DNA of 64,000 nucleotides. Origin: a candidate division FCPU426 bacterium. GTDB taxonomy: Bacteria > Oederibacteriota > Muellerivitia > Muellerivitales > Muellerivitaceae. Each line of letters begins with the position of its first letter. Position 1 is the stretch's first letter. Shown here in pieces: positions 1 through 30,505 of the stretch. The position numbers and the translations under genes are program-made. The notes under the pieces were generated by a model. The model was given only the letters and a program-made list of their open reading frames with translations, did not search any database and was not told where the DNA came from. The stretch is taken from the NCBI GenBank assembly GCA_963738405.1, contig CAVTWJ010000009.1, forward strand, positions 4,793-68,792, given 5' to 3'.

Positions 1-10
1 CGCGGCCGCG

Positions 11-1000
11 GTGGCCTCGACGCGGTTTGCGCCGCTGCCCGGGCTTGCCGCAACCGGGGAGCAGCGGCTGCGGGCGGGCCAGGTGGGTGAGCTGCATGAG
101 GTGTACGGGGGATTGGGGTCGGGGCGGCTGGTGATCGCGGGCGGCCCCGGATCGGGGAAGAGCAGCGCGGCTGTACTGCTGATCCTGGCCGCCCTGCGCT
201 ACCGGCGGAGCGTCGCGGAGAAGGTCCGGCCCGAGGTGCCGGTGCCGGTGATGTTCACCTTGCAGGGGTGGGACCCCGGCACTCAGCGGGTTCGGGACTG
301 GCTGGCTGAGCGCCTGTGGCGGACCTACCCGCTGTTCGCGGGCAAGCAAGGGGCAGGGGCGGCACGTGACATGCTCGATGAGGGCCGGATCGCGGTGATC
401 CTGGACGGGCTGGATGAGATCCCTGAGGATCTGCGGCCAGCCGTGCTGCGGGCGCTTAGCCAGCAGGCAACCTTCCGGCTGGTCCTTTTGACCCGCAGCG
501 CCGAGATGGCTGATGCCGCGGCCCGGGCCATGCTGCAGGGCGCGGCGGCCATCGAGTTGCAAGACATCGACCCGGGTACCGCCGCCGGTTACCTCACCCG
601 CACCCAGCTCGACCCCCCGCCGCAAGGCTGGCATGAGCTGACCAGCCGCCTGCGGTTGGAACCGGGCAGCCCGCTGGCGCCGGCCTTGAACAACCCGCTG
701 ATGCTCACCCTGGTCCGCGACACCTACCACGCCGGAGACGACGCAGGTGAGCTCCTCGGCTTGCGCGGCGCGGCCGGGCAGCCCGCCTCGAGCGGGGACA
801 TCACCGGCTATCTCCTGGACCGGGTACTGCCCGCCGCCTATACCCAGCAGCCGGGCGAACCACCGCCCCGCTATGACCTGCTGACCGCGGAACGCGCGCT
901 GCGGTGCATCGCCGCGCGGATGAACACAGACGGCACCCGGGACCTGCGATGGTGGCACGTTCCTGCCTGGGCCCATGCCGCCCCTCGCGTCATCGCGACC
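11..1000 (+). CDS. NACHT/STAND-type P-loop NTPase, N-terminal NTPase portion; downstream frame degenerates into repeats/frameshifts (fragments continue in ORFs 975-1451 and 1509-1943)
   Basis: Walker A GGPGSGKSS and Walker B VILDGLDEI in the translated ORF. GC about 70% with strong GC3 bias. From about nt 1000 the protein becomes low-complexity, and other frames carry GLVxGLVx hydrophobic segments and a YQFRHARLQDRL-type motif. Confidence 0.5.
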
Positions 1001-1429
1001 TGGCTCGGCGCCGTATTCGCGGCCGGGATCGCGGCCACGATCGCAGGGGGATCGCGCTCGCCTCCGTGGCCGGGCGCGGGCGGGGATAGCGGACGGGATC
1101 GCGGTCGGGCTCGTGGCCGGGATAGCGGCCGGGATAGCGTTCGGGCGGGGAAACAAGATCCCCAAACGGATGGCGCCCGTGCGGTGGCGACAACTTTTTC
1201 GACGCAGGCCGGTTGTGGTGGGCGTCCTGGCCGGGCTCGTGGCCTGGCTCGCTGTTCGGGTTCGCGGGCGGGCAGGCCGCGGGCTGCGCGGGCGGGCTCG
1301 AGCCCGGGGTCGTGGTCGGGACTTGTGGCCTGGCTTGGGGCCGGGGTTGTCACCGGGATGTCCCGGCCAGGAACTGACAACATCAGTCCCCTTAGTCCAC
1401 TCTCCTCATGGCGCAGTGATCGAGCGTTC

Positions 1430-1612
1430 GGGCTCGTGGTCGGGTTCGTAGTCGGGCTCGTGGTCGGGCTCGGCGTTCGGGTTCGTCGGCTCGGGCTCGG
1501 GTTCGATCGTGGGCGAGTCCCTGTTCGGGCTCACGAGCGGGCTCGTGGCCGGGCTCGTGGGCGGGCTCGTGGTCGGGCTCGTGGCCGGGCTCGCGGTCGG
1601 GCTCGTGTATCC
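1430..1612 (+). repeat. 12-nt tandem repeat (GGGCTCGTGGYC)n, about 15 units, encoding (G-L-V-x)n hydrophobic repeats; related degenerate copies at 1096-1320
   Basis: Direct reading of the sequence gggctcgtggtcgggctcgtggccgggctcgcggtc... In the 1509-1943 frame it translates to GLVAGLVGGLVVGLVAGLAVGLV. Confidence 0.7.
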
Positions 1613-1935
1613 CCAGTCGTGGTCATCCTCCCTCGCGTTTGCACAGCTCGCTGCATCTGACCGGACTCCGGTTCGCCTCATGCGGTTCCTCGAAGACGCC
1701 CGCAGCCGCAACGTCTTGCGCACGGTCGGGCCGGTCTACCAGTTCCGCCACGCCCGCCTGCAAGACCGCCTGGCCGCCCAGGAATCGGCAACTGGAAAGG
1801 GGCCCGGCAAGCCCGGCCTAGCGGCAGGAGGCGCCATGTTCACCATGATCACTCTACGCTGCCCCGGGGGAAGCGGAGACATGTCGAGCGGTCCGCCAAT
1901 GCTATCGAATATCGAGAATCCGACATTCCCATACT

Positions 1936-4268: not shown

Positions 4269-6179
4269 TTATGGGTTCGAATCGAGAGGGGTTTCTACAA
4301 GAACCTGAACCGTCCTGTTATAGTACCTTCCTTCAGGAAGCTCGTTCGGATAGAGCGGCTGTGTTTTCCCATAGCCATGCGCAACCAGCGACTTAACTTT
4401 GCCCTTGATGTGCCCCGCAATATCCATCTTAACAGCATTTGCGCGGTTCGTCGAGAGCTTGGTATTGTAATCCTCGGTGCCTAAGATATCCGTGTAGCCA
4501 TTGACGGAAACATCCGAATTCGGCTGGATGCGATTATAAACGTAAGAATCCAAGATCTTGTGATTCCACTTGCCCATATCGGACTTGTTATAGGTGAAAA
4601 GGATAAGATTGTAAGTCTCACGGGTCTTATCGGCCAAATGCTCCGCAACAACGTTGCTAACGGAGAACTGCTTGACACTGATCTTATCGACATTGGAAGA
4701 AACCGTGCGGCCGGTCTTATCCGTGACATTGAGCTGAACGGACATCATATCCTCACCAGATGGAAGTTTGCCATCGGAGGAGCGCCAGTTATAACCATTG
4801 TAATCCATCTTCGATAGCGATCCAAGATCGGTGATCTCCGCCCATTTCTTGCCTTGATAACCAATCTCCAGTGCACGGCTTTGGATCGTCTCGTCTCGGA
4901 GTCCGTTCTCCCATTTGAATCCCCCTGTCGGCGCATCGGGGCGCTTCACATTGCTGTTGTGCAACACAGGATGAATGATCTCCCATGAATCGCTCGTAAG
5001 CTCTACGCGGCGATTCTCAGCAATGCCTTCGGGAGTAGTTGGAAGTGTTGGGCTTTCCGGAAGTTTGCGTGCTTCAACGGAAATGCGTTCTGGATTAATA
5101 CCCCAGATCTCGACCAGATATTTCTTGACCGATTCTGCGCGCTGGCGGGAAAGATCGATCGACATCTCATTATCGACATCCTGCGAGTTCGTACCCGTCA
5201 GGCCGATCTTCGTATCCGGATTGTTCCGCATCCGAAGTCCAACGATATTAAGATAATTATAGTAAGCATTTAACGTACCGCTGATCGTATCTTCCGTGAA
5301 ACCCTTCGTCTGATCCGGGCTGGTAAACATCACATATCGCGATGGGAGCGTGCCAGTTCCAGCATCGTAGAACACCATCGGCAGCAGTGCATACAAATCG
5401 ATCGTCTTTTGCTCGCGAATGATAACGCCTTTGAAATTCGGGAAAAGCGAGGGTTTTTCCTTGACGAGCTGAGGATCCTGAGTCACCCAATGCACGACCG
5501 GTGGATTCTCGTTATTCATCGGAATATCGTGTGTGATGCTGCGGGAGGAATCGTTGCGCAACGGGATCACTTCCGAGGTCGGGCCATAATTAAAGTGGTT
5601 CGATTCTGTCGCGCTAATGATATAGGTACCCCCAAGGTTGCCATCGGCATCGCTCGGAAGAATAGCAAGATACTCTCCAGTGGAGCTGTTCGTAGTCTTA
5701 TTATAGATCGTGTCCTTCGTGCGCGAATCGATAATTACGACGTGCGCGGTCAGGTTCTCCTTTGTATTGATATCATACGCACGACCATGCAGCACAAGGG
5801 TTGGCTTGGGCGCCGGAGGATTTGTTGCAACATATACATCGAGCTTGCCACTTCCGCCAGGGCGGCTGCTGCTGAAAAAGAGTACGTTACCGGAGGCCGG
5901 AACAGAAAGAAAGAAATCGTCAGAAGGAGAATTGATCGGAGCAGGAAGCCGAACGGGGGTGGTCCAATCTGTATCGCTGGGTCCTTTCCATTCCGATTGA
6001 TAAATATCCAGCCCGCCAAGTCCAGGATGATTAGGATCGCGGCTGGGGGCATCAGATGCAAAATAGAGCGTCGTACCATCGGCTGCCATAAATGGGGATC
6101 CTTCATAGCCACCGGTATTTATCTTCGTACCAAGATTAACGGGGTCACTCCAGCGACCATCGGGAACACTTAGACGACA
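4269..6179 (-). CDS. OmpA-family protein with PD40/TolB-like beta-propeller repeats, 5'-truncated (frame stays open up to the composition junction at about 6180)
   Basis: C-terminal OmpA-like domain (NGYTDILGTEDYNTKLSTNRANAVK...RTVQVLVE). N-terminal PD40-like repeats (DGTTLYFASD, LDIYQSEW, GKLDVYVA). No signal peptide or start context; the in-frame ORF runs to about 6179, just before a stop. Confidence 0.6.
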   Translation of the reverse strand, partial: CRLSVPDGRWSDPVNLGTKINTGGYEGSPFMAADGTTLYFASDAPSRDPNHPGLGGLDIYQSEWKGPSDTDWTTPVRLPAPINSPSDDFFLSVPASGNVLFFSSSRPGGSGKLDVYVATNPPAPKPTLVLHGRAYDINTKENLTAHVVIIDSRTKDTIYNKTTNSSTGEYLAILPSDADGNLGGTYIISATESNHFNYGPTSEVIPLRNDSSRSITHDIPMNNENPPVVHWVTQDPQLVKEKPSLFPNFKGVIIREQKTIDLYALLPMVFYDAGTGTLPSRYVMFTSPDQTKGFTEDTISGTLNAYYNYLNIVGLRMRNNPDTKIGLTGTNSQDVDNEMSIDLSRQRAESVKKYLVEIWGINPERISVEARKLPESPTLPTTPEGIAENRRVELTSDSWEIIHPVLHNSNVKRPDAPTGGFKWENGLRDETIQSRALEIGYQGKKWAEITDLGSLSKMDYNGYNWRSSDGKLPSGEDMMSVQLNVTDKTGRTVSSNVDKISVKQFSVSNVVAEHLADKTRETYNLILFTYNKSDMGKWNHKILDSYVYNRIQPNSDVSVNGYTDILGTEDYNTKLSTNRANAVKMDIAGHIKGKVKSLVAHGYGKTQPLYPNELPEGRYYNRTVQVLVETPLDSNP

Positions 6180-19135: not shown

Positions 19136-19789
19136 ATGGATGCAAGCAGGCTCGACGAGCGCCACGCCATGGTCAAAGATCAGCTTCAGGCCCGGGGTGT
19201 CCGCAACCCCTGGGTGCTCCAAGCGATGCTTGATATTCCCCGGCACCTTTTCGTATCTGAGGACCAAAGCCCCAAGGCCTACCAGGACGGCCCCCTTCCC
19301 ATCGGCTGTAACCAAACCATCAGCCAGCCCTATATCGTGGCTTCCATGATCGAACTGCTGGACCCCCAAAAGACCCACCGGGTGCTGGAAGTGGGCTTAG
19401 GGAGCGGCTATTTGGCCGCGGTTTTATCCGGTCTGGTGGGGGAAGTGTACGCGGTGGAGAGGGAATCCCAGTTGCTGGATCAGGCCAAGGCCCGGCTTGC
19501 CGCACTTGGCCTTCTAAACATCCAAACCCAAGAGGGGGATGGCAGTTTGGGTTGGAAGGAACAAGCTCCCTTTGATTCCATCCTGGTCTCGGCGGGCAGC
19601 CCTAAACTTTCCCAAAGCCTCCTGGCCCAGCTGAAGATTGGTGGGACTTTGCTGGCTCCCATTGGAAGCAGGGAGGAACAAAAGCTGGTGAGGGTTGTGA
19701 AAAGGTCCGAAACCCATTTCCAGGAGAAGGAACTGTACAAGGTGAAGTTTGTGCCCCTTATCGGCAAAGAGGGCTGGCCGCAAAGGTAA
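19136..19789 (+). CDS. pcm: protein-L-isoaspartate O-methyltransferase
   Basis: ISQPYIVASMIELL, VLEVGLGSGYLAAVL, IGGTLLAPIG motifs. RBS GGGAGG upstream. Confidence 0.9.
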   Translation: MDASRLDERHAMVKDQLQARGVRNPWVLQAMLDIPRHLFVSEDQSPKAYQDGPLPIGCNQTISQPYIVASMIELLDPQKTHRVLEVGLGSGYLAAVLSGLVGEVYAVERESQLLDQAKARLAALGLLNIQTQEGDGSLGWKEQAPFDSILVSAGSPKLSQSLLAQLKIGGTLLAPIGSREEQKLVRVVKRSETHFQEKELYKVKFVPLIGKEGWPQR

Positions 19790-19967
19790 TTACCCCGTCC
19801 GGGGTTGAAAGTGTTGAAAATTTGTCCGATTTTGCCCCCCTTTTTACCTCCCGCCGTAAAAAATCGGTAAAAGTTCACAAACGTATATTGCCCGGTTCTC
19901 AATTTTGAAAATAATATTTCTTGTTGGGGCCGTCTGGGCCAAACCCGTCCTTCGGTACCCTCAACCC

Positions 19968-20146
19968 GGTAAACAAAATCCACAAGTGGGTAAACAGTTC
20001 GGATAACCGGGTAAACAACAATCTCAACTAGGTAAACAAGGTCCGTAACCCGGTAAACAACCCACGCCAACCGGGTAAACAGGGACCCATAACTGGGTAA
20101 ACAGCCACTCTCAACCGGGTAAACAAGATTTCCCCGGGTAAACAAA
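19968..20146 (+). repeat. array of 9 direct repeats CGGGTAAACA at 21-22-bp spacing (iteron-like), preceded by an AT-rich segment (19895-19925)
   Basis: GGTAAACA occurrences start at 19968, 19989, 20010, 20031, 20052, 20074, 20096, 20118, 20137. Confidence 0.85.
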
Positions 20147-20156
20147 GGATTTTGCC

Positions 20157-22322
20157 GTGCCCCAACCTACGCCCGAATCAAAGGCCTGGATGGAAAGTTT
20201 GTCCGACCTGGCCGCCGACATTGAAAAACATCAAAAAGTTAAACATGCCGATCGGGCGGACGCCCTCGACCTTCACCCTACCAAGTTATCCTTCCTTTTG
20301 GCACTCCACCGGTGTTTGGACCCTGCGGCCCTTGCGAAAATCCGTCAGGCCGCCCAGGGGGATCACCCCTTTACCCTATCCTTTAAAAGCGCCAAGGCCT
20401 TGGCAGAGCTAGAGGGCCGGGTTCCTGATCTGTCAAAGGCGGTCCATGAGGCCTTAGACCAGATTCTGCCCCACCACCTAGCCACCCTGCAGATCAAAGC
20501 CCTGGTGGACCATATGGCCAGCGGCAAACCCGCCCAGGAATTTGACCCGACCCAGGTTAAAAAGACCCCCAAGGGTGGCCTTTCCCTCCAATCCCCAAGC
20601 CCTGACCCACCCCAAGAAGCCGAAGAGGATTCGGAGGATGAAGAACCGGAAGAAGAACCAACCAACCCAAAGGCCAAAAAGAAGACCTCTGCCCTGAGGT
20701 TTCAAACCGAGGGGCAAGGTTTGAGTGTACCCATTCCCAAAAAAGGAATGGGTAAGGCCAAAGGTCCCAACCTAAAACCCGCCAAGAAGGCCCTCAAAGG
20801 CGGGTTTAAAGACCTCCTCAAATACATTCACGAATATGTCAAAGCGGGCAGTAAGGCTGTGGCCGATTATTTCATTCCCTTGCACTCCCGTTCTAGCGGT
20901 AAGCGGGGAGGGGCCCAGTCCCTGCCCAACCTCTTCCGCTTTGCGGGCCATTGGGGGCTCTACTGGTTTTGCGTCCTGTTTATGTATGGCGGTAGCATCA
21001 GCTTCGTGGGGCACTTTATCCCCGGGGTGGGCCCCTGGATCGACGGCCTTCGGCTGGCTTTTTTCCACTTCATCCTTCACCTGCCTCTATGGCTCCTGGC
21101 ACAGGCGCTGGCCAAGCCCTGGGTGGTTCTAGTGCTAGGCGTTGCTCTGGTCTGGTGGATTCACAAGGAATTCCACGCCGGGTTGATGGCCACCCTCATC
21201 GTCGCGGCGGTTTTGGGCGCGGGATGGTATTTCCGGGGCTGGGTAATGGAACATCTACCAAATTTGACAAACCCATTTTCACCACCAAGTCTCCAAGACA
21301 CCAAGAACGACCAAGCCTTGGATAACAGCAAAACCCAAAGCCCCATAACCTCACCACCCAAGGCGGCCGGTTCCCCTATGGAACCGGCACAGCCAAGTCA
21401 TGGGCCTCGACCTGTCGTCTCGGCCCAGGCGCCCTCTGCCCGGAGGTCTCAAACCGACGGGCGTGACTTGAGTGCACCAATTCCGGAAAAAGGAATTGGT
21501 GTACAGGCCATGCCCAAAGAAGACCGGGCCTCTTTAGAAGCAGAAATCGCCGCCCTGCCCCGGCCCTGCCGGGTCAAAGATTTTCCCATCGAACCCGACC
21601 CCAATATAGGCGCCGAAATGGCAGGCCGCCGCCTCTCGGATATCCAGGACCCGGAAAAATATTCGCTTCGCGTGGGGCCCGATGAAAAAAAGATTACATC
21701 GGCGGTGGTGAATGGCTCCGGTTTCAACATGGAAATCCAAGGCGGCTTTTCGCTGGGGGACATCAACAGCGTCTTGGGCGATTCATCAAAAAAGGGAATG
21801 GCGTTTTATTGGGAAGACGTGCGGGCCATCCATTGTTGCGAGGTGGATGTGCTGGGGGATCACCCCCGTACCCTTTACCAATGCGGTTTGCTGATTGCGG
21901 GTTTGAAAAAGCCCATCACCGTGCAATGCGCAAGTGTTGAGGACTTGGGGCACCTGGTTTCGGGGCTGGAATTTTGGGTGCGAAACGCGCAGGGGGGCAA
22001 GAACGCGCCGATTGGCGGTTTGCCCTATCTGTACCAGGGCCTTCTGTTGGGCAGTGAAGGGGAAGTGATAGGTACTTGGGATAACAGCCCCATCGCGAAA
22101 ACGGGTTTTATGCCGGGCGATCATATATGGTCTGTGGATTCGAACCCCGGCATGCGCATGGGCAACGAGGAATTGCTTTCGAGTCTGCAAGACCTGTCGC
22201 CGGGCCCGCACGCGCTGTTTGTGGTGGACCCGGGTGAATGGGTGAAGGGAATGACGGGCCCAAGAAACAGAACCTGGGTTTTCAACCCGAAAAGAGTGAA
22301 GCTTCAATTGCTGGTTCAGTAA
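20157..22322 (+). CDS. large hypothetical protein, function unknown (acidic/Pro-rich linker, central 4-5 TM helices, internal SxPIPxKGxG repeat, possible C-terminal PDZ-like segment)
   Basis: 721-aa ORF with a GTG start directly after the repeat array (an alternative ATG lies at about 20186). Low-complexity EEDSEDEEPEEEP. Hydrophobic core LYWFCVLFMYGGSISFVGHF...VVLVLGVALVWWI. Confidence 0.5.
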   Translation: MPQPTPESKAWMESLSDLAADIEKHQKVKHADRADALDLHPTKLSFLLALHRCLDPAALAKIRQAAQGDHPFTLSFKSAKALAELEGRVPDLSKAVHEALDQILPHHLATLQIKALVDHMASGKPAQEFDPTQVKKTPKGGLSLQSPSPDPPQEAEEDSEDEEPEEEPTNPKAKKKTSALRFQTEGQGLSVPIPKKGMGKAKGPNLKPAKKALKGGFKDLLKYIHEYVKAGSKAVADYFIPLHSRSSGKRGGAQSLPNLFRFAGHWGLYWFCVLFMYGGSISFVGHFIPGVGPWIDGLRLAFFHFILHLPLWLLAQALAKPWVVLVLGVALVWWIHKEFHAGLMATLIVAAVLGAGWYFRGWVMEHLPNLTNPFSPPSLQDTKNDQALDNSKTQSPITSPPKAAGSPMEPAQPSHGPRPVVSAQAPSARRSQTDGRDLSAPIPEKGIGVQAMPKEDRASLEAEIAALPRPCRVKDFPIEPDPNIGAEMAGRRLSDIQDPEKYSLRVGPDEKKITSAVVNGSGFNMEIQGGFSLGDINSVLGDSSKKGMAFYWEDVRAIHCCEVDVLGDHPRTLYQCGLLIAGLKKPITVQCASVEDLGHLVSGLEFWVRNAQGGKNAPIGGLPYLYQGLLLGSEGEVIGTWDNSPIAKTGFMPGDHIWSVDSNPGMRMGNEELLSSLQDLSPGPHALFVVDPGEWVKGMTGPRNRTWVFNPKRVKLQLLVQ
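22158..22322 (+). repeat. direct repeat copy 1 (the 3' end of the 721-aa gene); copy 2 at 23100-23264
   Basis: About 165 bp with about 95% identity: atgggcaacgaggaattgctttcgag...caacccgaaaag. Confidence 0.85.
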
Positions 22323-22449: not shown

Positions 22450-22728
22450 ATGCGGTTTAAATTCGACAGGAACAAGAGCCATAAACTCCGCCGAAACCCC
22501 GCGCGCGGCATTGGTTTCGAGGAAGCCCAAAGAATATGGGAAAGCCCTTACTACCTCGACCAACGTTCCGACTTTCCGGAACAATGGAGGGCCATTGGCT
22601 GGGTGGGAGATAGGCTTTATTCCGTGATCTATGAAGAAAGAAGGGACCGGGAAGGGGATTACATCCACTTGGTCACTCTTTGGAAATCCACCAAGGAAGA
22701 AAGGAAATTATATGAAACCCATTCTTAA
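22450..22728 (+). CDS. brnT: BrnT-family toxin (DUF497) of a type II toxin-antitoxin pair
   Basis: MRFKFDRNKSHKLRRNPARGIGFEEAQRIW...YSVIYEERRDREGDYIHLVTLWKSTKEERKLY fits the BrnT pattern. Confidence 0.7.
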   Translation: MRFKFDRNKSHKLRRNPARGIGFEEAQRIWESPYYLDQRSDFPEQWRAIGWVGDRLYSVIYEERRDREGDYIHLVTLWKSTKEERKLYETHS

Positions 22729-22996
22729 GACAAAAAAAGTTCTGACGGCGGAACAAATAGCCCAAATGGCCGACAAGGGTAAGGATGTTTCCAAGCATTT
22801 CACGAACCATGGAAAAATGATGCCCGCCATCCGCCGGGTCAATGTGGATTTCGCCGAAAACATGCTGCGGGAATTGGACGGTTTGGTCCGCGAGATGAAC
22901 GTAAGCCGTCAGGCGGTCATCAAAGCTTTCCTGCGCCAGGGATTGGATCAGCACTACTTAGCCAAGAAAAAACGCCCGCATCCAACCGCTCATTAA
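22712..22996 (+). CDS. brnA: BrnA-like antitoxin (ribbon-helix-helix)
   Basis: Overlaps brnT by 17 nt. C-terminal RHH-like NVSRQAVIKAFLRQGLDQH. Confidence 0.6.
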   Translation: MKPILKTKKVLTAEQIAQMADKGKDVSKHFTNHGKMMPAIRRVNVDFAENMLRELDGLVREMNVSRQAVIKAFLRQGLDQHYLAKKKRPHPTAH

Positions 22997-23099
22997 CTCT
23001 TTAGTCCGATCCGGAAAACACAGGATGTAGTGGTGCCTTAAAAGGGGTGTATTAGAGTGGATCTGAAATTTTCTTTTTTCAGGCCTGACCCCTTTTACA

Positions 23100-23264
23100 C
23101 ATGGGCAACGAGGAATTGCTTTCGAGGCTGCAAGACCTGTCGCCGGGCCCGCACGCGCTGTTTGTGGTGGACCCGGGCGAATGGGTGAAGGGAATGACGG
23201 GCCCAAGAAACAGAACCTGGGTCTTCAACCCGAAAAGGACGAAGCTTGAATTGGATGTGCCGTA
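23100..23264 (+). repeat. direct repeat copy 2 (duplicated 3' end of the 721-aa gene; remnant ORF MGNEELLSRLQDLSPGPHALFVVDPGEWVKGMTGPRNRTWVFNPKRTKLELDVP)
   Basis: Aligned by eye to 22158-22322. Confidence 0.85.
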
Positions 23265-23284
23265 AAAGAGGTATATAAAGGGAA

Positions 23285-24283
23285 ATGAATTTGGATTACG
23301 TAGTCTGTAATTTTCTTTTTTCAGATCTGCCCCCTTTTACGATAATTAACGAATCGTTTGAACTTAAGGATATAAATTCGATGTTTTTAAAACCGAAAAC
23401 TTTAAAAATAAAACTTTACGAAGTGCCAACAACCAGCGAAAAAAATGTTATTGCAAAACTCCGAAAGGAGCTATTCCCAAAAGCTAATAAAGAAATGTTT
23501 TGGGGCATTGTCGCTGAATGGTATTCCTGGCTCAAACCAAACTGCAATCAAATTTCTATTTCAGACGCAGGCTATAAAACCAAATACGGGAAGGTTAATG
23601 TCAAAGAAATCGCTATTGCTCTTAACCGCCATCCAATAATTCTTCATGACAGTCAGTATCTCGAAACAACTTTTGTTCTATTACCTTGCTACCGATTTCT
23701 TTTTGACAACACCCTTGAGCCGTTGAGAATTTCGAAAGAACTTTTCGAAGCATTGAAAGAAATTAAAGAAAGAGATGCAAAAGAACATACTTCTATTTCA
23801 TATAAGGCTGACGAGCTGACCAAACGACTTGGTATGAAAGTAGATGAACCTTTCGAGGAAAAAATCCGTATGTTGTGCGATATAGGATTATTACACTGCT
23901 CTTCTTGGTCTTCAGGTTCCTCATTATTTGAAAATGCAACACTCAACATCAGCATTAAACCAACGGAAGAATATGAAGAGTGGTATAGAAATTTAATTTC
24001 TAATTTTGAGCGAGACGTAAATGACAACAAGAGAGAATTCTGGAAAAAAAACAAATTTTTACGTTGGCTCTCAGGGAAGGAATCCCTGACTGATAATGTT
24101 CTTGTTCCTGGTGAAATTTCCATTCAGGCTCAAAAACCAAGAATTTTACAAATTTCTATCCTTATACTTTTTATCCCACTCCTGGGCACAACCATCTATT
24201 TTGCTTCTCAAGCTAATTGGCCAGCCTGTGGAATATTTTTAACAGCAATATTAGCTTTATTGAATCTCGCCAAAGGGATGTAG
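23285..24283 (+). CDS. hypothetical protein with C-terminal double TM anchor (low-GC cassette, gene A)
   Basis: GC about 34%. C-terminal ILQISILILFIPLLGTTIYFASQANWPACGIFLTAILALLNL. Confidence 0.5.
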   Translation: MNLDYVVCNFLFSDLPPFTIINESFELKDINSMFLKPKTLKIKLYEVPTTSEKNVIAKLRKELFPKANKEMFWGIVAEWYSWLKPNCNQISISDAGYKTKYGKVNVKEIAIALNRHPIILHDSQYLETTFVLLPCYRFLFDNTLEPLRISKELFEALKEIKERDAKEHTSISYKADELTKRLGMKVDEPFEEKIRMLCDIGLLHCSSWSSGSSLFENATLNISIKPTEEYEEWYRNLISNFERDVNDNKREFWKKNKFLRWLSGKESLTDNVLVPGEISIQAQKPRILQISILILFIPLLGTTIYFASQANWPACGIFLTAILALLNLAKGM

Positions 24284-24285
24284 AA

Positions 24286-25500
24286 ATGTCGAATTCCGAA
24301 ATTCCAATCTCCAAAAATTATTTCTCGGCCAAAGGCAAAAATGCAGAAAGTTTTTTATACGAGCTTTCTAAGAAATCTTTTTTTGTAGATTGGTGTTATT
24401 TAAACCCTCTGTTACCAGACGGAAAAGAATTATGTGATCTGTTAATTGTGTTTGACGAAATTGCAATTATTTGGCAAATAAAGGATTTGAAGCCCAATAA
24501 AGACGGAGGAATTAAAGAGTCCGATTTTGAAAAAAACATAAAACAACTGTCCGGCGCACGCCGTACCCTTTTCGACCTTAAAACTCCAATTAAGTTGAAT
24601 AATCCAAGACGAGGGGAAGAAATATTCAACCCTGAAAAAATCAAAGAAATATATTTAATTGCAGTTTTCATCGGTGATTTTCAATCAAGCATTCCTTTAA
24701 TTGATTCAATCAAAAAATATTTGGTCCATATTTTCATAATGCCTTTTTTAGAAATAGTTTTGAACGAGCTAGATACCATTACTGATTTTATAGAATACTT
24801 AAGGTGCAAAGAAAAATTCATTACTTCTTTTAATCAACGGATAATTACTCTTTCCGGCGAAGAAGATTTTCTCGGTCTTTATCTTTTAAATGATAGAAAT
24901 TTAGACAAATTCAATAATGCTATTTTATTAACCGTTGCGGATGATATTTGGAAAGGATTTTCCACTTCTGAAAATTACAACCGCCGAGAAAAGGCTGATA
25001 AGAAAAGTTATTTTTGGGACAATCTGATTAATAGAGCCCATGAAGCAGAAACGGGAGAATACGAAATAATAGCTCGTGAATTGGCTCGTTTAAATCGCTT
25101 TGAAAGAAGATTGGCAAGTAACAGTTTTATTGAAGCCCATTTGTCGCTAAAGAATGATCCGAATAAATTATTCAAACGAACAATAGCAATTAAAGGCGTT
25201 TCTTATTGTTTTTTATTCGCTGGTGAAGCTGAAAAAGATATCGAGGAACGAAAAAATCTCTTGTTTCATACTTGTATGATTGTACGGATGCTTAAGCCTG
25301 AAAACAAAACCGTAATCGGCATTTCTACAAGTGCTGCGTATGGCCCAACATTTGGATATGAGTTTTTTTATATAAATATTCCAGAACTTTCTCAAAGTGA
25401 TATTGATGAAATCAAACAATACCAAAATAAGTTAGGGATCTACACCAAACCAGAAGAACACTTCAAGCAAGAATGGGAATATCCAAAAGATAAATCTTAA
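24286..25500 (+). CDS. NERD (nuclease-related, PD-(D/E)xK-like) domain protein (gene B)
   Basis: GKNAESFLYELSKKSFFVDWCYLNPLLPDGKELCDLLIVFDEIAIIWQIKDLK resembles the NERD core (G..E..v..L.kl...v..n.......EiDhlvi...gifvIEvKn). Start MSNSEIP at 24286 preferred over 24217. Confidence 0.45.
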   Translation: MSNSEIPISKNYFSAKGKNAESFLYELSKKSFFVDWCYLNPLLPDGKELCDLLIVFDEIAIIWQIKDLKPNKDGGIKESDFEKNIKQLSGARRTLFDLKTPIKLNNPRRGEEIFNPEKIKEIYLIAVFIGDFQSSIPLIDSIKKYLVHIFIMPFLEIVLNELDTITDFIEYLRCKEKFITSFNQRIITLSGEEDFLGLYLLNDRNLDKFNNAILLTVADDIWKGFSTSENYNRREKADKKSYFWDNLINRAHEAETGEYEIIARELARLNRFERRLASNSFIEAHLSLKNDPNKLFKRTIAIKGVSYCFLFAGEAEKDIEERKNLLFHTCMIVRMLKPENKTVIGISTSAAYGPTFGYEFFYINIPELSQSDIDEIKQYQNKLGIYTKPEEHFKQEWEYPKDKS

Positions 25501-25514
25501 GCTCTAAAAACACC

Positions 25515-26297
25515 ATGGAGGCTATTAAAATGCCATCCGAAATCCACACAGAAAATTCCGTAAAAGATAAATATAAAATCATGTATAAAAATTCTTACGC
25601 CTCAACTTTGCGAGACATTGCTGATTACGATTACATTTCGGCTCGACTTCTTCTTAGAAACCATTGCAAAGACCAATTTTTATATCTTGCCTACCAATCT
25701 CTAGAAAAGTACATGAAGTCCATTTTACTTTTTCATCTCCGAAAAAACAAAATCGGACATGATATTACAAAACTATTTGGTGAAATTTGTAAAATCACTG
25801 AGTTTGAGATCGGAAATAATCCAAGAATAAAGACCTTTATTGAAAGGTTTGATAATACTTTCGGGGACCCAAGATATTTATCGCTAGGATTTGCCGGTGA
25901 TTATAAGTATCTATTCGAACTAGATTATGCAGTTTGGAAACTTAGGATTTATTGTCAGCCTGAGAGAAACAGAATCTCTTTATTGGAAAAGGCGGACGAA
26001 AAAATATTGAAAAAATCATTCTTGAAAGGGACATTCTTACTTTGGTCGGGAGTATTAGAAGATGTTCATAAGGAAAAGAAAAAGGGCTTATATCAGAGTT
26101 TGGTTTGGTTTAATTCTTACTTTGGTCGTTTCAAAGGGAATGAAATGTCTCTCATGGGATATTGGTTTAAAAATTCTCCGTTGTTTTCAGGCAATGAAGA
26201 AAGACGCCTCTTAACTTACGAATCCATAAAGGACTATGTTCACATACCCCCGAAAATAAAAAACTACTTTGAAGATTTGAAAAAAAGGAACTCCTGA
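25515..26297 (+). CDS. HEPN-like protein (Rx5H motif) (gene C)
   Basis: DYDYISARLLLRN...FLYLAYQSLEKYMKSILLFHLRKNKIGHDITKLF. The R-x5-H and helical pattern resemble HEPN. Confidence 0.4.
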   Translation: MEAIKMPSEIHTENSVKDKYKIMYKNSYASTLRDIADYDYISARLLLRNHCKDQFLYLAYQSLEKYMKSILLFHLRKNKIGHDITKLFGEICKITEFEIGNNPRIKTFIERFDNTFGDPRYLSLGFAGDYKYLFELDYAVWKLRIYCQPERNRISLLEKADEKILKKSFLKGTFLLWSGVLEDVHKEKKKGLYQSLVWFNSYFGRFKGNEMSLMGYWFKNSPLFSGNEERRLLTYESIKDYVHIPPKIKNYFEDLKKRNS

Positions 26298-26465
26298 ACT
26301 GGTATGGAAGAAACGGACGGGGTCAGGCATGAAAAAAGAAAATTAAAGTTAATCGCACAACAATTACTAACATCACTTATATCCACGTCCTGAATCAGTT
26401 CGAACAAGACCTTAAGTTGTGTCTCCGTTAGTGGTAAAAGTCGCTTTTAATTAAATGGATAAATA

Positions 26466-27869
26466 ATGGAACCAAATCCTATCGAACAGCCATCATCCGA
26501 ACGGCAGGTTTACTATCCTGAAACGCTAAAGGGTTCAAAAGCCCTTTGGCCCTTAATTTTATTTGCTTCATTTGTTCCTTTGGGGTTCCTTTTTATATTT
26601 CTAAGCATTTATTTCCATACGGGAAGGCTTTATTTCCCCTGGTGGTCACCACGAATCCGTTCTTTGTATGTATTTTGGGTTTTTAATTTACTGGTTGTCT
26701 TTTTGAGGTTGAAAAGTCAAAAAGCTCATGCCGAAACATCACCGGAGGGTCTTGCGCAAGTGAATGCTTTTGGGAAACAGGTCGATATTCCCTGGGATGA
26801 AATCGGCCAGGTTTTGGTGGATGAGGGCGGTATTGTTCGGGTTAAGGACAAAACCGGTAAAAAAACCATCAACCTTTCGAAGTTTTATAAAAATTTTGAC
26901 CAACTGAAGAAAAGGGTTTTAGAAGAATACGAAACAAAAAGAATTCCCCAGGCGAAAGAAGCCGCCCTTTATGGCATGGCCTCGAAAGTCGGCATTATTT
27001 ATTTTTGGGGTGGGTTATTTATTCTGATTCTTGGTCTGACATCGGTAGTAGGCGGTGTTATGACCCTCATGGGTTATGGTGACACGAAAGTTAATCCATT
27101 GGTCAATGAGATCATCTTTTTAGTCTTCGGCCCAGCCTTCATTGCCCTTGCGGTTTACTGTCTTTGGTGGGGTGTGAGAGTTAAATACAGCAAAATCGAA
27201 ATTACTCAATCGGGAATCGCCAGGCTAGAGAAAGCTGGAAACCGGGTTTTTATTAAATGGGAGGATGTAGCCCGGTTGACCAAAAGGGAACGGATGAAAG
27301 ACATAGTGGTTACCAGCTTGGACCCATCTAAAAAAATCATGGTGGATTATCAATTTGAAGGGTTCGAGCAGATTCGAGACAGAGTTTTTATGGAATTCGA
27401 GAAAAGGCTGTCCTTGCCAGTGGTGGCCACGACCTACGGCCCAAAATGGATTCATCCCAACTTTGTCTTGATGGGATTTATGGGAGCTTTTATTGGACTA
27501 TTGTGTTTCGCCCGATTCAGCCAAAAAACCACAGGCGATACGAGCGGGTTTAACTTCTTAATTATCCTTTTAGTGGGTTTTTATTTGTTCATTCTTTTCG
27601 CGGAAACAAAAGCGGTGAAGGCCCTGACCTTAAACGGAAATGAAATTATCCTTCGCAAACTTTTTGGAAAGAAAATTCTACAAGGACGTGAAGTGGCGGA
27701 CATTTCCATGGATAGTATCGCGGGCCAACACGGGACTTTTTATTACCGAATTCAACTGACTGCCGAAGATGGGAAGAAATACATCTTCGCCAATGATCTT
27801 GGAACAGAAGTGGGTGTTTATCCGGTCCTCAAGAAATGGCTGGAGAAACAAAAAGGCGGACGAGGCTAG
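26466..27869 (+). CDS. YdbT-like membrane protein with three tandem [2 TM + bacterial PH (bPH_2)-like] modules (gene D)
   Basis: Three repeats of a hydrophobic hairpin followed by a soluble segment of about 90 aa (e.g. VDIPWDEIGQVLVDEGGIVRVKDKTGKK; VFIKWEDVARLTKRERMKDIVVT; LTLNGNEIILRKLFGKKILQGREVADISMD). Confidence 0.5.
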   Translation: MEPNPIEQPSSERQVYYPETLKGSKALWPLILFASFVPLGFLFIFLSIYFHTGRLYFPWWSPRIRSLYVFWVFNLLVVFLRLKSQKAHAETSPEGLAQVNAFGKQVDIPWDEIGQVLVDEGGIVRVKDKTGKKTINLSKFYKNFDQLKKRVLEEYETKRIPQAKEAALYGMASKVGIIYFWGGLFILILGLTSVVGGVMTLMGYGDTKVNPLVNEIIFLVFGPAFIALAVYCLWWGVRVKYSKIEITQSGIARLEKAGNRVFIKWEDVARLTKRERMKDIVVTSLDPSKKIMVDYQFEGFEQIRDRVFMEFEKRLSLPVVATTYGPKWIHPNFVLMGFMGAFIGLLCFARFSQKTTGDTSGFNFLIILLVGFYLFILFAETKAVKALTLNGNEIILRKLFGKKILQGREVADISMDSIAGQHGTFYYRIQLTAEDGKKYIFANDLGTEVGVYPVLKKWLEKQKGGRG

Positions 27870-28019
27870 GCCTGAAAAAATCTGTTTTACGACGTCCATT
27901 CAACTAAATCCCTTTTGAGTTAAGCCCTAATAAAAATAATGACTATGTCAATTTGGCAGGCTTTTTCCTACACTTCCCTTCGTTAGCAGGTGTTTTGAGG
28001 CGAAGAAAAACAGGGGAGA

Positions 28020-28976
28020 GTGAACATGAAGCATTTGAGCCAATTGGCAGGGATTGTTTTGTTACTTACCAGTTTTGTGGCGGTTTCCAATGCGGATACG
28101 CTTTTTGAACCCGTGAATTCCAACCAATCTTCCGCTTACCAACGGGACCCATCCAACTTATTGCAGTTCGCCAAGGCCGTTAAACCCACAAAGCACACCG
28201 AAGACGCCGCCGACGAAACCATCAACTTGTTCGATGGTTCGGGAACCTTCGTACAGCTTTACACTGGCTACGACTATTCCATCATGGGCGACATCAGCAA
28301 CGGTTTTAATAACCTCAAGCCGGCCTTCCTCAACGGCAGCCCAAGCCTATCGGCCGCGGGTGGGAGTTTTCAAAACAGCGGTATCCGCACGGGGGTGCTT
28401 TACGGCATCCACTTGGATTCCTCCAGCAGTTTTGCCTTGGATATCAGCAACGTCACGACCGTGCCTAGCAGTTTGACGTTTTCTACCGGGACGACGCAGG
28501 TGGCCAGCTTCAACCTGTTGCCTTCACTTTTTAGCGCCTCCATCGACTATTCCCTCAACCTCATCCAGGGACCGGGAAGCCGGACCTACGTGGCCCTGGG
28601 GGCCGGCTATTACCATGGAGCCGTGGCTTATTACGGCAGTGGGGGCGGGTACGGCAGTGGAACCTTCACGGGCGACAATATCGGTGGGACCTTGGGGATT
28701 GGGGAAGAGATCGCCCTAGGTTCGAATTTTGGGTTCAATTTTTCCTTGAACGGCCGTTACGCTTACTTCAGCCGGGCCAGTTCTAGCAATGCTGCCGGCT
28801 ACGCTGGCGGATCGGGCACCATTTCCCTGGCGCTCATCCAGCAAGGCCCGACCGGCCGGTTCCTGGTGCCGATTGCGAACAACCTGATCGATGCGAATCC
28901 CAACATCGTTTCCTACGCCGGGATGGACTTTTCGGGCATCGACGCCAACGCGGCGGTGGAATACCACTTTTTCTAA
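28020..28976 (+). CDS. outer-membrane beta-barrel protein (Gly/Ser/Asn-rich; C-terminal aromatic residue)
   Basis: Signal peptide MNMKHLSQLAGIVLLLTSFVAVSNA. Terminal ...NAAVEYHFF. Confidence 0.55.
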   Translation: MNMKHLSQLAGIVLLLTSFVAVSNADTLFEPVNSNQSSAYQRDPSNLLQFAKAVKPTKHTEDAADETINLFDGSGTFVQLYTGYDYSIMGDISNGFNNLKPAFLNGSPSLSAAGGSFQNSGIRTGVLYGIHLDSSSSFALDISNVTTVPSSLTFSTGTTQVASFNLLPSLFSASIDYSLNLIQGPGSRTYVALGAGYYHGAVAYYGSGGGYGSGTFTGDNIGGTLGIGEEIALGSNFGFNFSLNGRYAYFSRASSSNAAGYAGGSGTISLALIQQGPTGRFLVPIANNLIDANPNIVSYAGMDFSGIDANAAVEYHFF

Positions 28977-29020
28977 AAGCTTTTCGAAGGTCAGAATTTA
29001 TTTAGTTCGTTTTTCTAAAC

Positions 29021-29095
29021 GCGGTCCCCGGCACCACTTCCCAATGGGTGGAGCCGGGGTGCATCCAGATCAAAGGTAGGGCCATCCAATCCCCT
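29021..29095. repeat. about 75-bp repeat, copy 1, derived from the 3' coding region of the PA14-fusion gene; copy 2 at 30591-30662
   Basis: Identical 37-bp core ACTTCCCAATGGGTGGAGCCGGGGTGCATCCAGATCA at 29036-29072 and 30603-30639, with similar flanks. Confidence 0.8.
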
Positions 29096-29204
29096 TTAGC
29101 GCTCAAAACCTATCAGATAATATTGGGTTATTGTTGGTTAATGTTTGGTTGATAACTGGAAAATACCGGATAGAATGCGTAAACTTACTTAGAGGGAGGC
29201 GACC

Positions 29205-29573
29205 ATGTCCACGCCGCTTTTAGATCTGCCAAAAGACCATCTTTCGTTATTTAAAAAAAACAAACCCGACTATGAGAACATCGTGGATTTCCTACATCTC
29301 AAAAGGGTGGATGTGGCAAAGGCAACGGGGCTGGCGACCTCTTCAGTCCGTTTTGATGGGAAAATACCTCAGGAATTATCCGAGATACTTCTTCAATGGG
29401 CGGTTTTGTTCAATAAAGTAGCGGAATTTTTTAAGGGCGATGTTTATAAAACGAATCTTTGGTTCAATGTTCCGAATCCTTTGTTGGGAAATATAACTCC
29501 AAAAGATATGATCCGGCTGGGCCGCTATAAAAAACTTTATAGTTTTGTTTCACAGGCTATCGAAGACAATTAA
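29205..29573 (+). CDS. Xre/MbcA/ParS-like antitoxin (DUF2384 toxin-binding domain)
   Basis: C-terminal NLWFNVPNPLLGNITPKDMIRLGRYKKL matches the DUF2384 pattern (A..W...PN..LGG.TPL....T). Confidence 0.6.
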   Translation: MSTPLLDLPKDHLSLFKKNKPDYENIVDFLHLKRVDVAKATGLATSSVRFDGKIPQELSEILLQWAVLFNKVAEFFKGDVYKTNLWFNVPNPLLGNITPKDMIRLGRYKKLYSFVSQAIEDN

Positions 29574-29587
29574 AACAGGTATTTAAG

Positions 29588-30505
29588 ATGGATAAGAGCC
29601 GGCGAAAAAAGAAACTTGATTCCCGCGCCTTATCCTTTCTCCTCCCGACCTATTTACCTCTGGATCAATTCAATGTTCTTGACGTGCAGCGTTGGCAATC
29701 CGGCCAACAAAAGCTCAAGGATTTTTATGGGCAATGGTATTTCGAATTAGCCAGGCAACGTTCCCGGGCGAAAGAATCAATCAATCGCTCACTTCAGAAG
29801 GCAAGCACACCCTATTCTTTCTCCCCTTGTTATAGGGTATTTCGCTTTAAATGGGCCTTGGGCCCGCTTTCTTCCAAAGGAAGCCTTAAGGTTCCGGGTG
29901 GACGTTTCAATATCGGTGACATCGACGAGAGCTTATTTCAGAAATTTCCCGCCCTTTATTTGGCTGAAGACGCAGATACGGCTCTCTGTGAAATGATAGG
30001 ACCGAGACGAAATCCTTTGGAAACATTCAACCAATTTGATTTGGCTTCGATTAATGAGAAATCATTATCAATTGTGGCAACTTATGGGGAACTTGAATCG
30101 GTGGTGGATTTGACCAATCGGGAATGCCTGAAAGAATTTATTGATGTAGTTAAAACTTTTACCGTTTCCAAAAGTCTTGAAAAATTGGCCCAGGAAGTGC
30201 GGATCAATCTAAATGGCGGCACGGTTAATAGCGTGGATCTTCTTATGGAAACCCTCATGAATCCTAATTGGAGACAATTTCCAATGCATGTCGATGTACC
30301 CGCAAATTCTCAAATATTTGGACAGCTTGTTTGGGACGCAGGAATCGAAGGGGTTGTCTATTCCTCGAAATACACTAATAAAAAGTGTTTTGCGATTTTC
30401 CCGAATAACCTCAAGGGCGGCGATTCATTTGTGGAAATTATGGATGATGTTCCCAAAGGCGCAATTAAGCGTTTAGACTCCAAAACGTGGGAAAAACTTA
30501 TTTAA
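29588..30505 (+). CDS. RES-domain toxin (NAD-targeting toxin family) with N-terminal extension
   Basis: CYRVFRFKW, GGRFNIGD, FPALYLAEDADTALCEM, VVYSSKYTN supply RES-domain R/E/S positions. The gene is 15 nt downstream of the antitoxin. Confidence 0.6.
   Translation: MDKSRRKKKLDSRALSFLLPTYLPLDQFNVLDVQRWQSGQQKLKDFYGQWYFELARQRSRAKESINRSLQKASTPYSFSPCYRVFRFKWALGPLSSKGSLKVPGGRFNIGDIDESLFQKFPALYLAEDADTALCEMIGPRRNPLETFNQFDLASINEKSLSIVATYGELESVVDLTNRECLKEFIDVVKTFTVSKSLEKLAQEVRINLNGGTVNSVDLLMETLMNPNWRQFPMHVDVPANSQIFGQLVWDAGIEGVVYSSKYTNKKCFAIFPNNLKGGDSFVEIMDDVPKGAIKRLDSKTWEKLI

Follow-up and report, generated by a model that had tools for sequence, protein, structure and literature searches.

What a tandem array of short direct repeats is doing just upstream of the gene that encodes a 721-amino-acid (aa) membrane protein is the question raised by a 64,000-nucleotide (nt) stretch of contig CAVTWJ010000009.1 (here called the window), from a candidate division FCPU426 bacterium (GenBank assembly GCA_963738405.1). 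A preliminary description of the window had likened the repeats and an adjacent AT-rich segment to the iterons and DNA-unwinding element of a plasmid or phage replication origin. Here, we report that the array is probably the cognate cis binding site of the membrane-anchored protein encoded directly downstream, a reading suggested by sequence comparison because array and gene always co-occur in the homologous loci checked (designated by L numbers).

Nine plus-strand copies of the 8-mer GGTAAACA begin at positions 19968, 19989, 20010, 20031, 20052, 20074, 20096, 20118, and 20137, exactly where the preliminary description had placed its repeats, and successive cores are 21, 21, 21, 21, 22, 22, 22, and 19 bp apart (mean, 21.1 bp). 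The repeat is real, but the 10-mer first given as its motif, CGGGTAAACA, matches just four of the nine copies exactly, and the invariant core is the 8-mer. The claim that the spacing is almost exactly two helical turns, with all sites on one DNA face, stood as to helical phasing, at spacings that range from 19 to 22 bp. By chance, 1.23 copies of GGTAAACA (standard deviation, 1.13) are expected per 64 kb, and 10 or more were reached in 0 of 100 shuffles; the concern that the motif might be frequent without periodicity was not borne out within the window, which holds a single further copy outside the array (position 5322). Aligned on the core, the nine units give a full site of about 15 bp with consensus yAACyGGGTAAACAr and eight invariant core positions; the cores are 100% identical, and the spacers of about 7 bp have a pairwise identity of 28%, equal to random sequence. 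The site is asymmetric and all nine copies run in the same orientation, head-to-tail, and are not palindromes of the parS type. Tandem Repeats Finder picked up the array independently (periods 22, 42, and 44).

The array occupies a 367-bp gap between pcm (PCMT family, 19136 to 19789) and the open reading frame (ORF) of the 721-aa protein. Stops interrupt five of the six frames, and in the sixth, on the minus strand, the repeat does not stay in register; a coding repeat on minus-strand ORF 19480 to 20145 was considered and rejected, as the ORF overlaps pcm and the repeat is out of frame. An Rfam scan of the array region returned no family at the gathering score or at an E value of 1, and the array thus lies in neither a coding region nor a known RNA gene, the two placements that the preliminary description had named as fatal to its reading. 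GTG 20157, 12 bp past the last repeat, is most likely the start of the 721-aa ORF, since homologs likewise have about 10 residues ahead of a conserved Trp. The AT-rich segment described as lying about 50 bp upstream of the repeats is present (aattttgaaaataatatttcttg, 19901 to 19923, 45 bp upstream of the first repeat).

The 721-aa protein and its family

Pfam, NCBIfam, PHROGs, and PADLOC contain no family for the 721-aa protein. A word-indexed homology search returned only five relatives. Common to these are an N-terminal block (about 130 residues, closing with SGKPAxxFD) and, after it, a charged linker, hydrophobic segments, and a C-terminal part that varies. The AlphaFold model of the N-terminal block is all-helical and confident (predicted local distance difference test [pLDDT], 84). 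A direct sequence search of this domain against the PDB gave no significant match, and relating it to ParB took that model together with a bridging profile. A profile search of 1.84 billion representatives gave 124 matches, in about 90 of which the domain is N-terminal; in about 35 weaker matches it starts at residue 100 to 150, and most of those tested carry Pfam ParB_N directly before it. The family profile aligns to residues 100 to 228 of the profile of these ParB_N proteins (99.6% probability; E value, 2e-23), and that bridging profile (A5) matches Noc, Spo0J, and ParB structures over the N-domain and helix-turn-helix (HTH) domain (E values, 1e-30 to 1e-21), its best PDB match being Noc (1e-30).

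By fold model and chain of profile alignments, the N-terminal block is a predicted DNA-binding domain of the ParB/Noc/KorB type that has lost its CTPase domain. The HTH domain begins at residue 1, and no ParB_N (CTPase) domain was found among 48 family members; ParB_N was seen only in a distant sister group. Trans_reg_C, the winged helix of OmpR/PhoB type, had no match in the window protein or in family members. Through the alignment chain to ParB and Noc, the two HTH helices of the window protein correspond to residues 30 to 36 and 41 to 53, and no other helices of the domain vary as much across the family.

One or more hydrophobic segments follow the linker in 47 of the 48 family members of at least 300 aa. 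Among the 33 members with a single segment, Lys/Arg average 2.45 on the N-terminal flank versus 1.58 on the C-terminal flank (P = 0.002), a positive-inside bias that places the DNA-binding domain in the cytoplasm. With topology taken from hydropathy alone, the family protein is predicted to be membrane anchored, with a cytoplasmic N-terminal domain. The modelled helices of the window protein span residues 259 to 287, 292 to 319, 321 to 339, and 343 to 358 (low confidence); the full-length AlphaFold 2 model was too poor (pLDDT, 44) for fold search or topology. Weak PDZ matches occur in the C-terminal region of family members.

Three short, tail-anchored members (L005, L007, and L011; 218 to 228 aa) consist of the DNA-binding domain, the linker, and one C-terminal membrane segment. 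The longest arrays belong to them (25 to 36 slots, mostly with every second slot filled, which gives a 43-bp period). Since members with no sensor domain have the longest arrays, DNA binding plus an anchor, and not signal sensing, would be the common denominator of the family, which favors a tethering role.

Arrays in homologous loci

Scans of species-representative genomes and metagenomes gave 31 loci, and those with organism names all come from metagenome-assembled genomes (MAGs) of candidate division FCPU426. Loci were found with one peptide motif (GKPAxxFD) derived from a 6-sequence alignment, a 37-sequence alignment being too diverse for a search pattern; the set is therefore biased toward members having the motif, and both the breadth of the family and the number of modules per genome are underestimated. 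Some 90 cluster representatives make up the family, which is apparently limited to candidate division FCPU426 and to peat and bog metagenomes. Literature searches returned no description of this protein family.

A head-to-tail array of direct repeats lies directly upstream of the family gene in 28 of the 28 loci with enough upstream sequence. A blind detector that ignored gene positions, run over 320 kb, reported 27 arrays, and each of them stands immediately upstream of a family gene. The period per array is 21.33 ± 0.15 bp; taken without filtering, the most frequent 8-mer of each upstream region recurs at intervals of 20 to 23, 41 to 44, 62 to 65, or 85 bp, and missing sites leave gaps of 42 to 43, 64, or 85 bp. 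The motif varies by paralog (AAGCCGGGAACA, TCTTGTTAACcAA, TAACCCAGTTCA, TTTCTGGTAAAC, TTCCTATTGGCAT, TCGGTATCAT, GGTGACAAA, and GATAACCCGCCCACA), with TTTCTGGTAAAC in the L004 array and CCTATTGGCAT in that of L008. Copy number runs from 6 sites (where the end of a contig truncates the array) to 28, and L005 and L007 have 13 to 17 copies at the 43-bp period. At least four gene-array pairs occur in one MAG, and the loci, on contigs 100 kb to 1.6 Mb long, are chromosomal. Conserved cores, random spacers, and a period kept across unrelated arrays point to selection on motif and phasing rather than mere amplification. For proteins at least 55% identical, the motif of each ranks first or second in similarity to that of the other.

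L011 and the window are syntenic, both having, in order, an ABC-2 permease gene, pcm, the array, the family gene, and a PMT_2/PA14 gene. Flanking proteins are 66 to 81% identical between the two, versus 42% for the family protein, which in L011 is of the short, tail-anchored form and has GGTGACAA sites. Gene and array appear to be exchanged as a unit between genomes, as far as such sequence comparison indicates. The preliminary description had the variable region begin at the array, and this agrees with the synteny, the flanks being shared and 19.8 to 30.5 kb differing.

Recent amplification of 42- to 43-bp units (about 91% identity) is seen in the arrays of L001, L004, L005, and L007. The largest array (L001, 4024 to 5915) has 28 CCGGGAACA sites in 42-bp double units, interrupted by an IS3-type insertion of about 1.3 kb; ahead of it stand four degenerate sites of a different motif (CCGATAAACA, CCGTTAAATG, and, twice, CCCATTAAACG), which may be relics of an earlier specificity. 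In L009 (8001 to 8420), the family gene is apparently frameshifted and stops after about 78 codons, with a nine-site CGTTGAAC array retained; this locus is possibly a decaying module. No array was found upstream of the two membrane-protein relatives checked in the ParB_N sister group (P0099 and P0110; L032, 2650 to 3000, and L034, 1080 to 1316).

No conserved neighbor gene was found among the homologous loci. The only recurrent neighbor is a gene for a secreted protein (about 215 to 260 aa, with an N terminus resembling a signal peptide), downstream of the family gene in four loci and not in the window (Table 1).

Upstream of the arrays, the best promoter-like site precedes an array that reaches the ribosome-binding site in the window, L002, L008, L021, L025, and L029. 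In the window, TGAAAATTTGTCCGATTTTGCCCC is a candidate promoter and transcription start (Table 1), downstream of which the array would fall in the transcribed leader. The equivalent element in L002, L008, L024, and L029, a −10-like hexamer and then TTnTCCGATTTTGGGG, comes after a TTGACA −35 hexamer. A −10-like hexamer with the element CCGATTTTG is common to the window (19826 to 19834), L002 (716 to 724), L008 (6323 to 6331), and L029; the 9-mer CCGATTTTG has 6 copies in the window versus 1.9 expected. The promoter calls are consensus matches, and the sites named are candidates.

The binding-site reading and its alternatives

In the reading that we prefer, about nine protein copies would bind head-to-tail on the 15-bp sites. 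With sites every two helical turns on one DNA face, the arrangement would suit proteins approaching from the membrane side, and the flexible charged linker of about 130 residues would let them reach DNA from the membrane plane. The resulting membrane-attached nucleoprotein patch would hold the chromosomal locus at the inner membrane. As the window array lies between a promoter-like region and the ribosome-binding site, bound protein would block transcription of its own gene, and occupancy would throttle the gene in negative feedback.

Several points weigh against this reading. Binding, stoichiometry, membrane tethering, and the direction of regulation are all inferred from association and homology. 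Protein and motif distances correlate weakly overall (Mantel rho, 0.15, reached by 216 of 5,000 permutations), and shared ancestry of the locus as a whole could account for that correlation; core and spacer divergence between orthologous arrays is about equal and so lends no extra support. HTH domains of the ParB type usually bind palindromes as dimers, and the window sites are asymmetric direct repeats. The window protein may, judging from the model, have four membrane helices, in which case the side on which its C-terminal region lies would be ambiguous. A promoter-like site stands between array and gene in L001, L014, L026, and L028, so a single regulatory logic does not fit all loci, and the regulatory consequence of binding may differ between them.

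The reading put forward at the outset, in which iterons and a DNA-unwinding element form the replication origin of a plasmid or phage, now seems hardly tenable, and an origin of an integrated element no more so. The form is alike (direct repeats at a spacing of about 22 bp, with a 23-bp AT-rich stretch near), and a check of cumulative GC skew, as had been suggested, gave a shallow local minimum at 21.5 kb, but this minimum falls inside the 721-aa gene, beside a low-GC island, and away from the array. With one mismatch allowed, the window has 10 DnaA boxes, about as many as chance would give (10.5 expected), and none between 15956 and 39244. An oriC reading of the skew minimum was considered and rejected. 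The proposed search for Rep or partition genes, made with Pfam and PHROG scans, yielded no Rep or ParA among neighboring genes and no Rep, primase, helicase, or integrase in the variable region of the window or adjoining homologous loci. At least four arrays in one genome also speak against an origin, as does the absence of any relative of the protein from 72,556 plasmids, 50,697 phage records, and a viral contig set. The AT-rich segment keeps no conserved position relative to the array, the AT-richest 30-mer lying upstream of, within, or downstream of it depending on the locus, and in the window the stretch overlaps a weak promoter-like pair. The other suggestions made at the outset, a parS-like partition site or a transcription factor-binding array, come close to the evidence, and the former fails for want of ParA, ParB_N, and palindromes. 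Specifically, a parS/sopC-like centromere bound by the ParB-like protein as part of a partition system would account for the ParB-type HTH domain and for tandem phased repeats adjoining the gene of the binder, the 43-bp period and 13 to 17 copies of L005 and L007 recalling sopC of the F plasmid, which has twelve 43-bp repeats. We nonetheless consider it very unlikely, given that no motor gene of the ParA, ParM, or TubZ type occurs near any locus, that the CTPase domain is missing, and that the loci are chromosomal and number at least four per genome, with no relatives on plasmids, phages, or viral contigs.

A transmembrane one-component regulator of the ToxR/CadC kind, for which the array would be an operator and tethering a by-product while the PDZ-like C-terminal region senses a signal, is unlikely. 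Its parts are there (DNA-binding domain, linker, membrane segment, and a large C-terminal region with weak PDZ matches), the arrays are always within about 200 bp of promoter-like sites, and ToxR and CadC, while held in the membrane, recognize direct repeats close to promoters. Against it, the short members end after the anchor yet have the longest arrays, no downstream target gene is conserved among the loci, the position of the array relative to the promoter is inconstant, 9 to 36 phased sites go far beyond the need of a switch, and the domain is of the ParB type, not the OmpR type. That the repeats instead act in RNA, as a 5′ leader whose nine motif copies are bound by a factor or form a structure, would suit the six loci (the window included) in which a promoter-like site precedes the array, which would then be transcribed. 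It is rendered highly improbable by a folding energy no better than that of shuffled sequence (z = −0.22), by the absence of Rfam matches, by the four loci with a promoter-like site downstream of the array, and by a strict 21.3-bp period with exact-multiple gaps, which fits helical phasing of DNA and has no obvious meaning in RNA. There is similarly little to recommend a neutral minisatellite that travels with the gene, or an array bound by an unrelated protein: the amplified units in four loci are what such a repeat would leave, but amplification alone cannot give identical cores with spacers at 28% identity, the period is kept across arrays with no sequence resemblance, array and gene are associated in every locus with enough upstream sequence, and no array turned up elsewhere in the 320 kb scanned.

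Beyond the preferred reading of the array as cognate binding site, a wider proposal is possible but on balance doubtful. Gene and array would constitute single-protein modules for chromosome-membrane tethering, each an integral-membrane protein with a ParB-type HTH domain (its CTPase domain lost) and a private phased array of 9 to 36 sites, and several specificities per cell would pin loci to the inner membrane. Multiplied nucleation sites would then compensate for the lost sliding-clamp domain, and modules would be exchanged as cassettes between genomes. Such modules would amount to the direct attachment of DNA to membrane proposed in the classic replicon model, a natural, sequence-specific attachment of the chromosome by an integral membrane protein.

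A genuine pairing would mark out a protein family, one left unannotated by Pfam, NCBIfam, PHROGs, and PADLOC, in which a ParB-type domain was split from its CTPase clamp and fused to a membrane anchor while each paralog coevolved its own sites. About 20 orthogonal protein-site pairs on one scaffold would then be available for studying the evolution of ParB-type HTH specificity, and possibly as tools for localizing DNA at membranes, and ParB relatives that spread from one site with CTP could be contrasted with those that instead have many sites. Annotators of these genomes should not take iteron-like arrays for replication origins.

Window neighborhood and comparison with known systems

Features of the array region and protein are collected in Table 1, with gene positions in homologous loci. 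Pfam and PHROG scans of neighboring genes in the window identified a cyclase, an ABC transporter, pcm, BrnT/BrnA, HEPN, and RES-Xre.

Table 1. Coordinates of the array, the upstream signals, the parts of the 721-aa protein, and selected genes of homologous loci
Feature	Sequence	Coordinates	Strand	Basis
Candidate promoter and transcription start, TGAAAATTTGTCCGATTTTGCCCC; window copy without a good −35 hexamer	Window	19815..19838	+	Inferred
Promoter-like pair TTGCCC-16-AATAAT (19888-19915), overlapping the AT-rich stretch 19901-19923	Window	19888..19923	+	9/12 consensus matches only
Nine-site head-to-tail array, consensus yAACyGGGTAAACAr	Window	19962..20145	+	Core count, Tandem Repeats Finder, unit alignment
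Shine-Dalgarno-like AAGGA, 7 nt before GTG, abutting the last repeat	Window	20145..20149	+	Read from sequence
Codons 1-130, predicted ParB/Noc/KorB-type helix-turn-helix DNA-binding domain, ending in SGKPAQEFD; no ParB_N CTPase domain	Window	20157..20546	+	
Charged linker, predicted disordered, residues 131-258; acidic run, then Lys-rich stretch (20 Lys)	Window	20547..20930	+	
Hydrophobic membrane region, residues ~259-358, up to four predicted helices	Window	20931..21230	+	Hydropathy, low-confidence model
Pro/Ser/Thr-rich spacer and beta-rich C-terminal region with PDZ-like segment (GDHIWSVD...); no confident family match	Window	21231..22322	+	
Short tail-anchored gene	L005	8001-8660		
Short tail-anchored gene	L007	8001-8687		
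Short tail-anchored gene	L011	4001-4657		
Secreted-protein gene	L001	8915-9625		
Secreted-protein gene	L003	1896-2657		
Secreted-protein gene	L004	10032-10808, 13686-14402		
Secreted-protein gene	L008	12963-13610		

The last 166 nt of the 721-aa gene (22157 to 22322) are duplicated at 23100 to 23265, 943 bp downstream (93% identity), and a BrnT/BrnA-like toxin-antitoxin pair (22450 to 22996) sits between the two copies of the gene end. The sequence looks as if the BrnT/BrnA region were a cassette inserted with duplication of the end of the gene. A 37-nt repeat (TCTGnAATTTTCTTTTTTCAGryCTGmCCCCTTTTAC) occurs at 23062 to 23098, just before the duplicated fragment, and again 242 bp later (23304 to 23340). 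The same CTGACCCCTTT junction recurs in L004 (11790 to 11806), after a HicB/HicA-like pair and ahead of a family-gene copy with no DNA-binding domain. The repeat and this junction may mark a site of cassette insertion or of C-terminal module swapping. In a low-GC island (23000 to 30500; 33 to 44% versus about 55%), HEPN, RES-Xre, and DUF2207-like genes are accompanied by several without any match; the island is missing from the syntenic locus L011. At the start of the window (1 to 1660), an ORF of 68 to 72% GC is packed with tandem 12-bp units (TCGGGCTCGTGG and similar) and stands out strongly from other window sequence.

Among known systems, the plasmid iterons bound by Rep initiators (P1, F, R6K, RK2, and pSC101) are alike in repeat length, in spacing of about 22 bp, in adjoining the gene of the presumed binder, and in a specificity private to each element; the system of the window differs in having no Rep-type protein, conserved unwinding element, or DnaA boxes and in being chromosomal, with several arrays per genome. 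ToxR, TcpP, and CadC have a domain order (cytoplasmic N-terminal DNA-binding domain, membrane segment, and C-terminal extracytoplasmic region) with which that predicted for the family may agree, although the window protein may have four membrane helices and the short members have no C-terminal domain. They use an OmpR-type winged helix and few sites, whereas the family has 9 to 36 sites and includes short members with no sensor; CadC is a membrane-integrated regulator and serves here as context for that comparison (PMC7888679).

SopB-sopC, ParB-parS, and KorB-OB share the homologous HTH fold and the tandem phased array beside the gene of the binder; the likeness to SopB-sopC extends to the 43-bp period with a dozen or more copies in some family relatives, and private specificity, as in each family paralog, is that of plasmid incompatibility groups. 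In contrast to these ParB-family centromeres, the family has no ParB_N clamp, ParA, or palindromes and is an integral membrane protein by prediction, encoded at several chromosomal loci. Noc of Bacillus subtilis, a DNA binder of the ParB family, carries specific chromosomal sites to the membrane (PMC8429893). It is like the family in linking a ParB-type DNA binder to the membrane, and it was the top PDB match of the bridging profile. Noc differs in that its attachment is peripheral, through an N-terminal, CTP-regulated amphipathic helix, and in that it spreads from single, scattered 16-bp palindromic sites, whereas the family would use a transmembrane anchor downstream of the DNA-binding domain, with no CTPase domain, and a clustered array beside its own gene. 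What appears to be new here, as judged from sequence, is the remaking of a ParB-type protein-site pair, in which the protein is integral to the membrane by prediction and the phased array is private to it.

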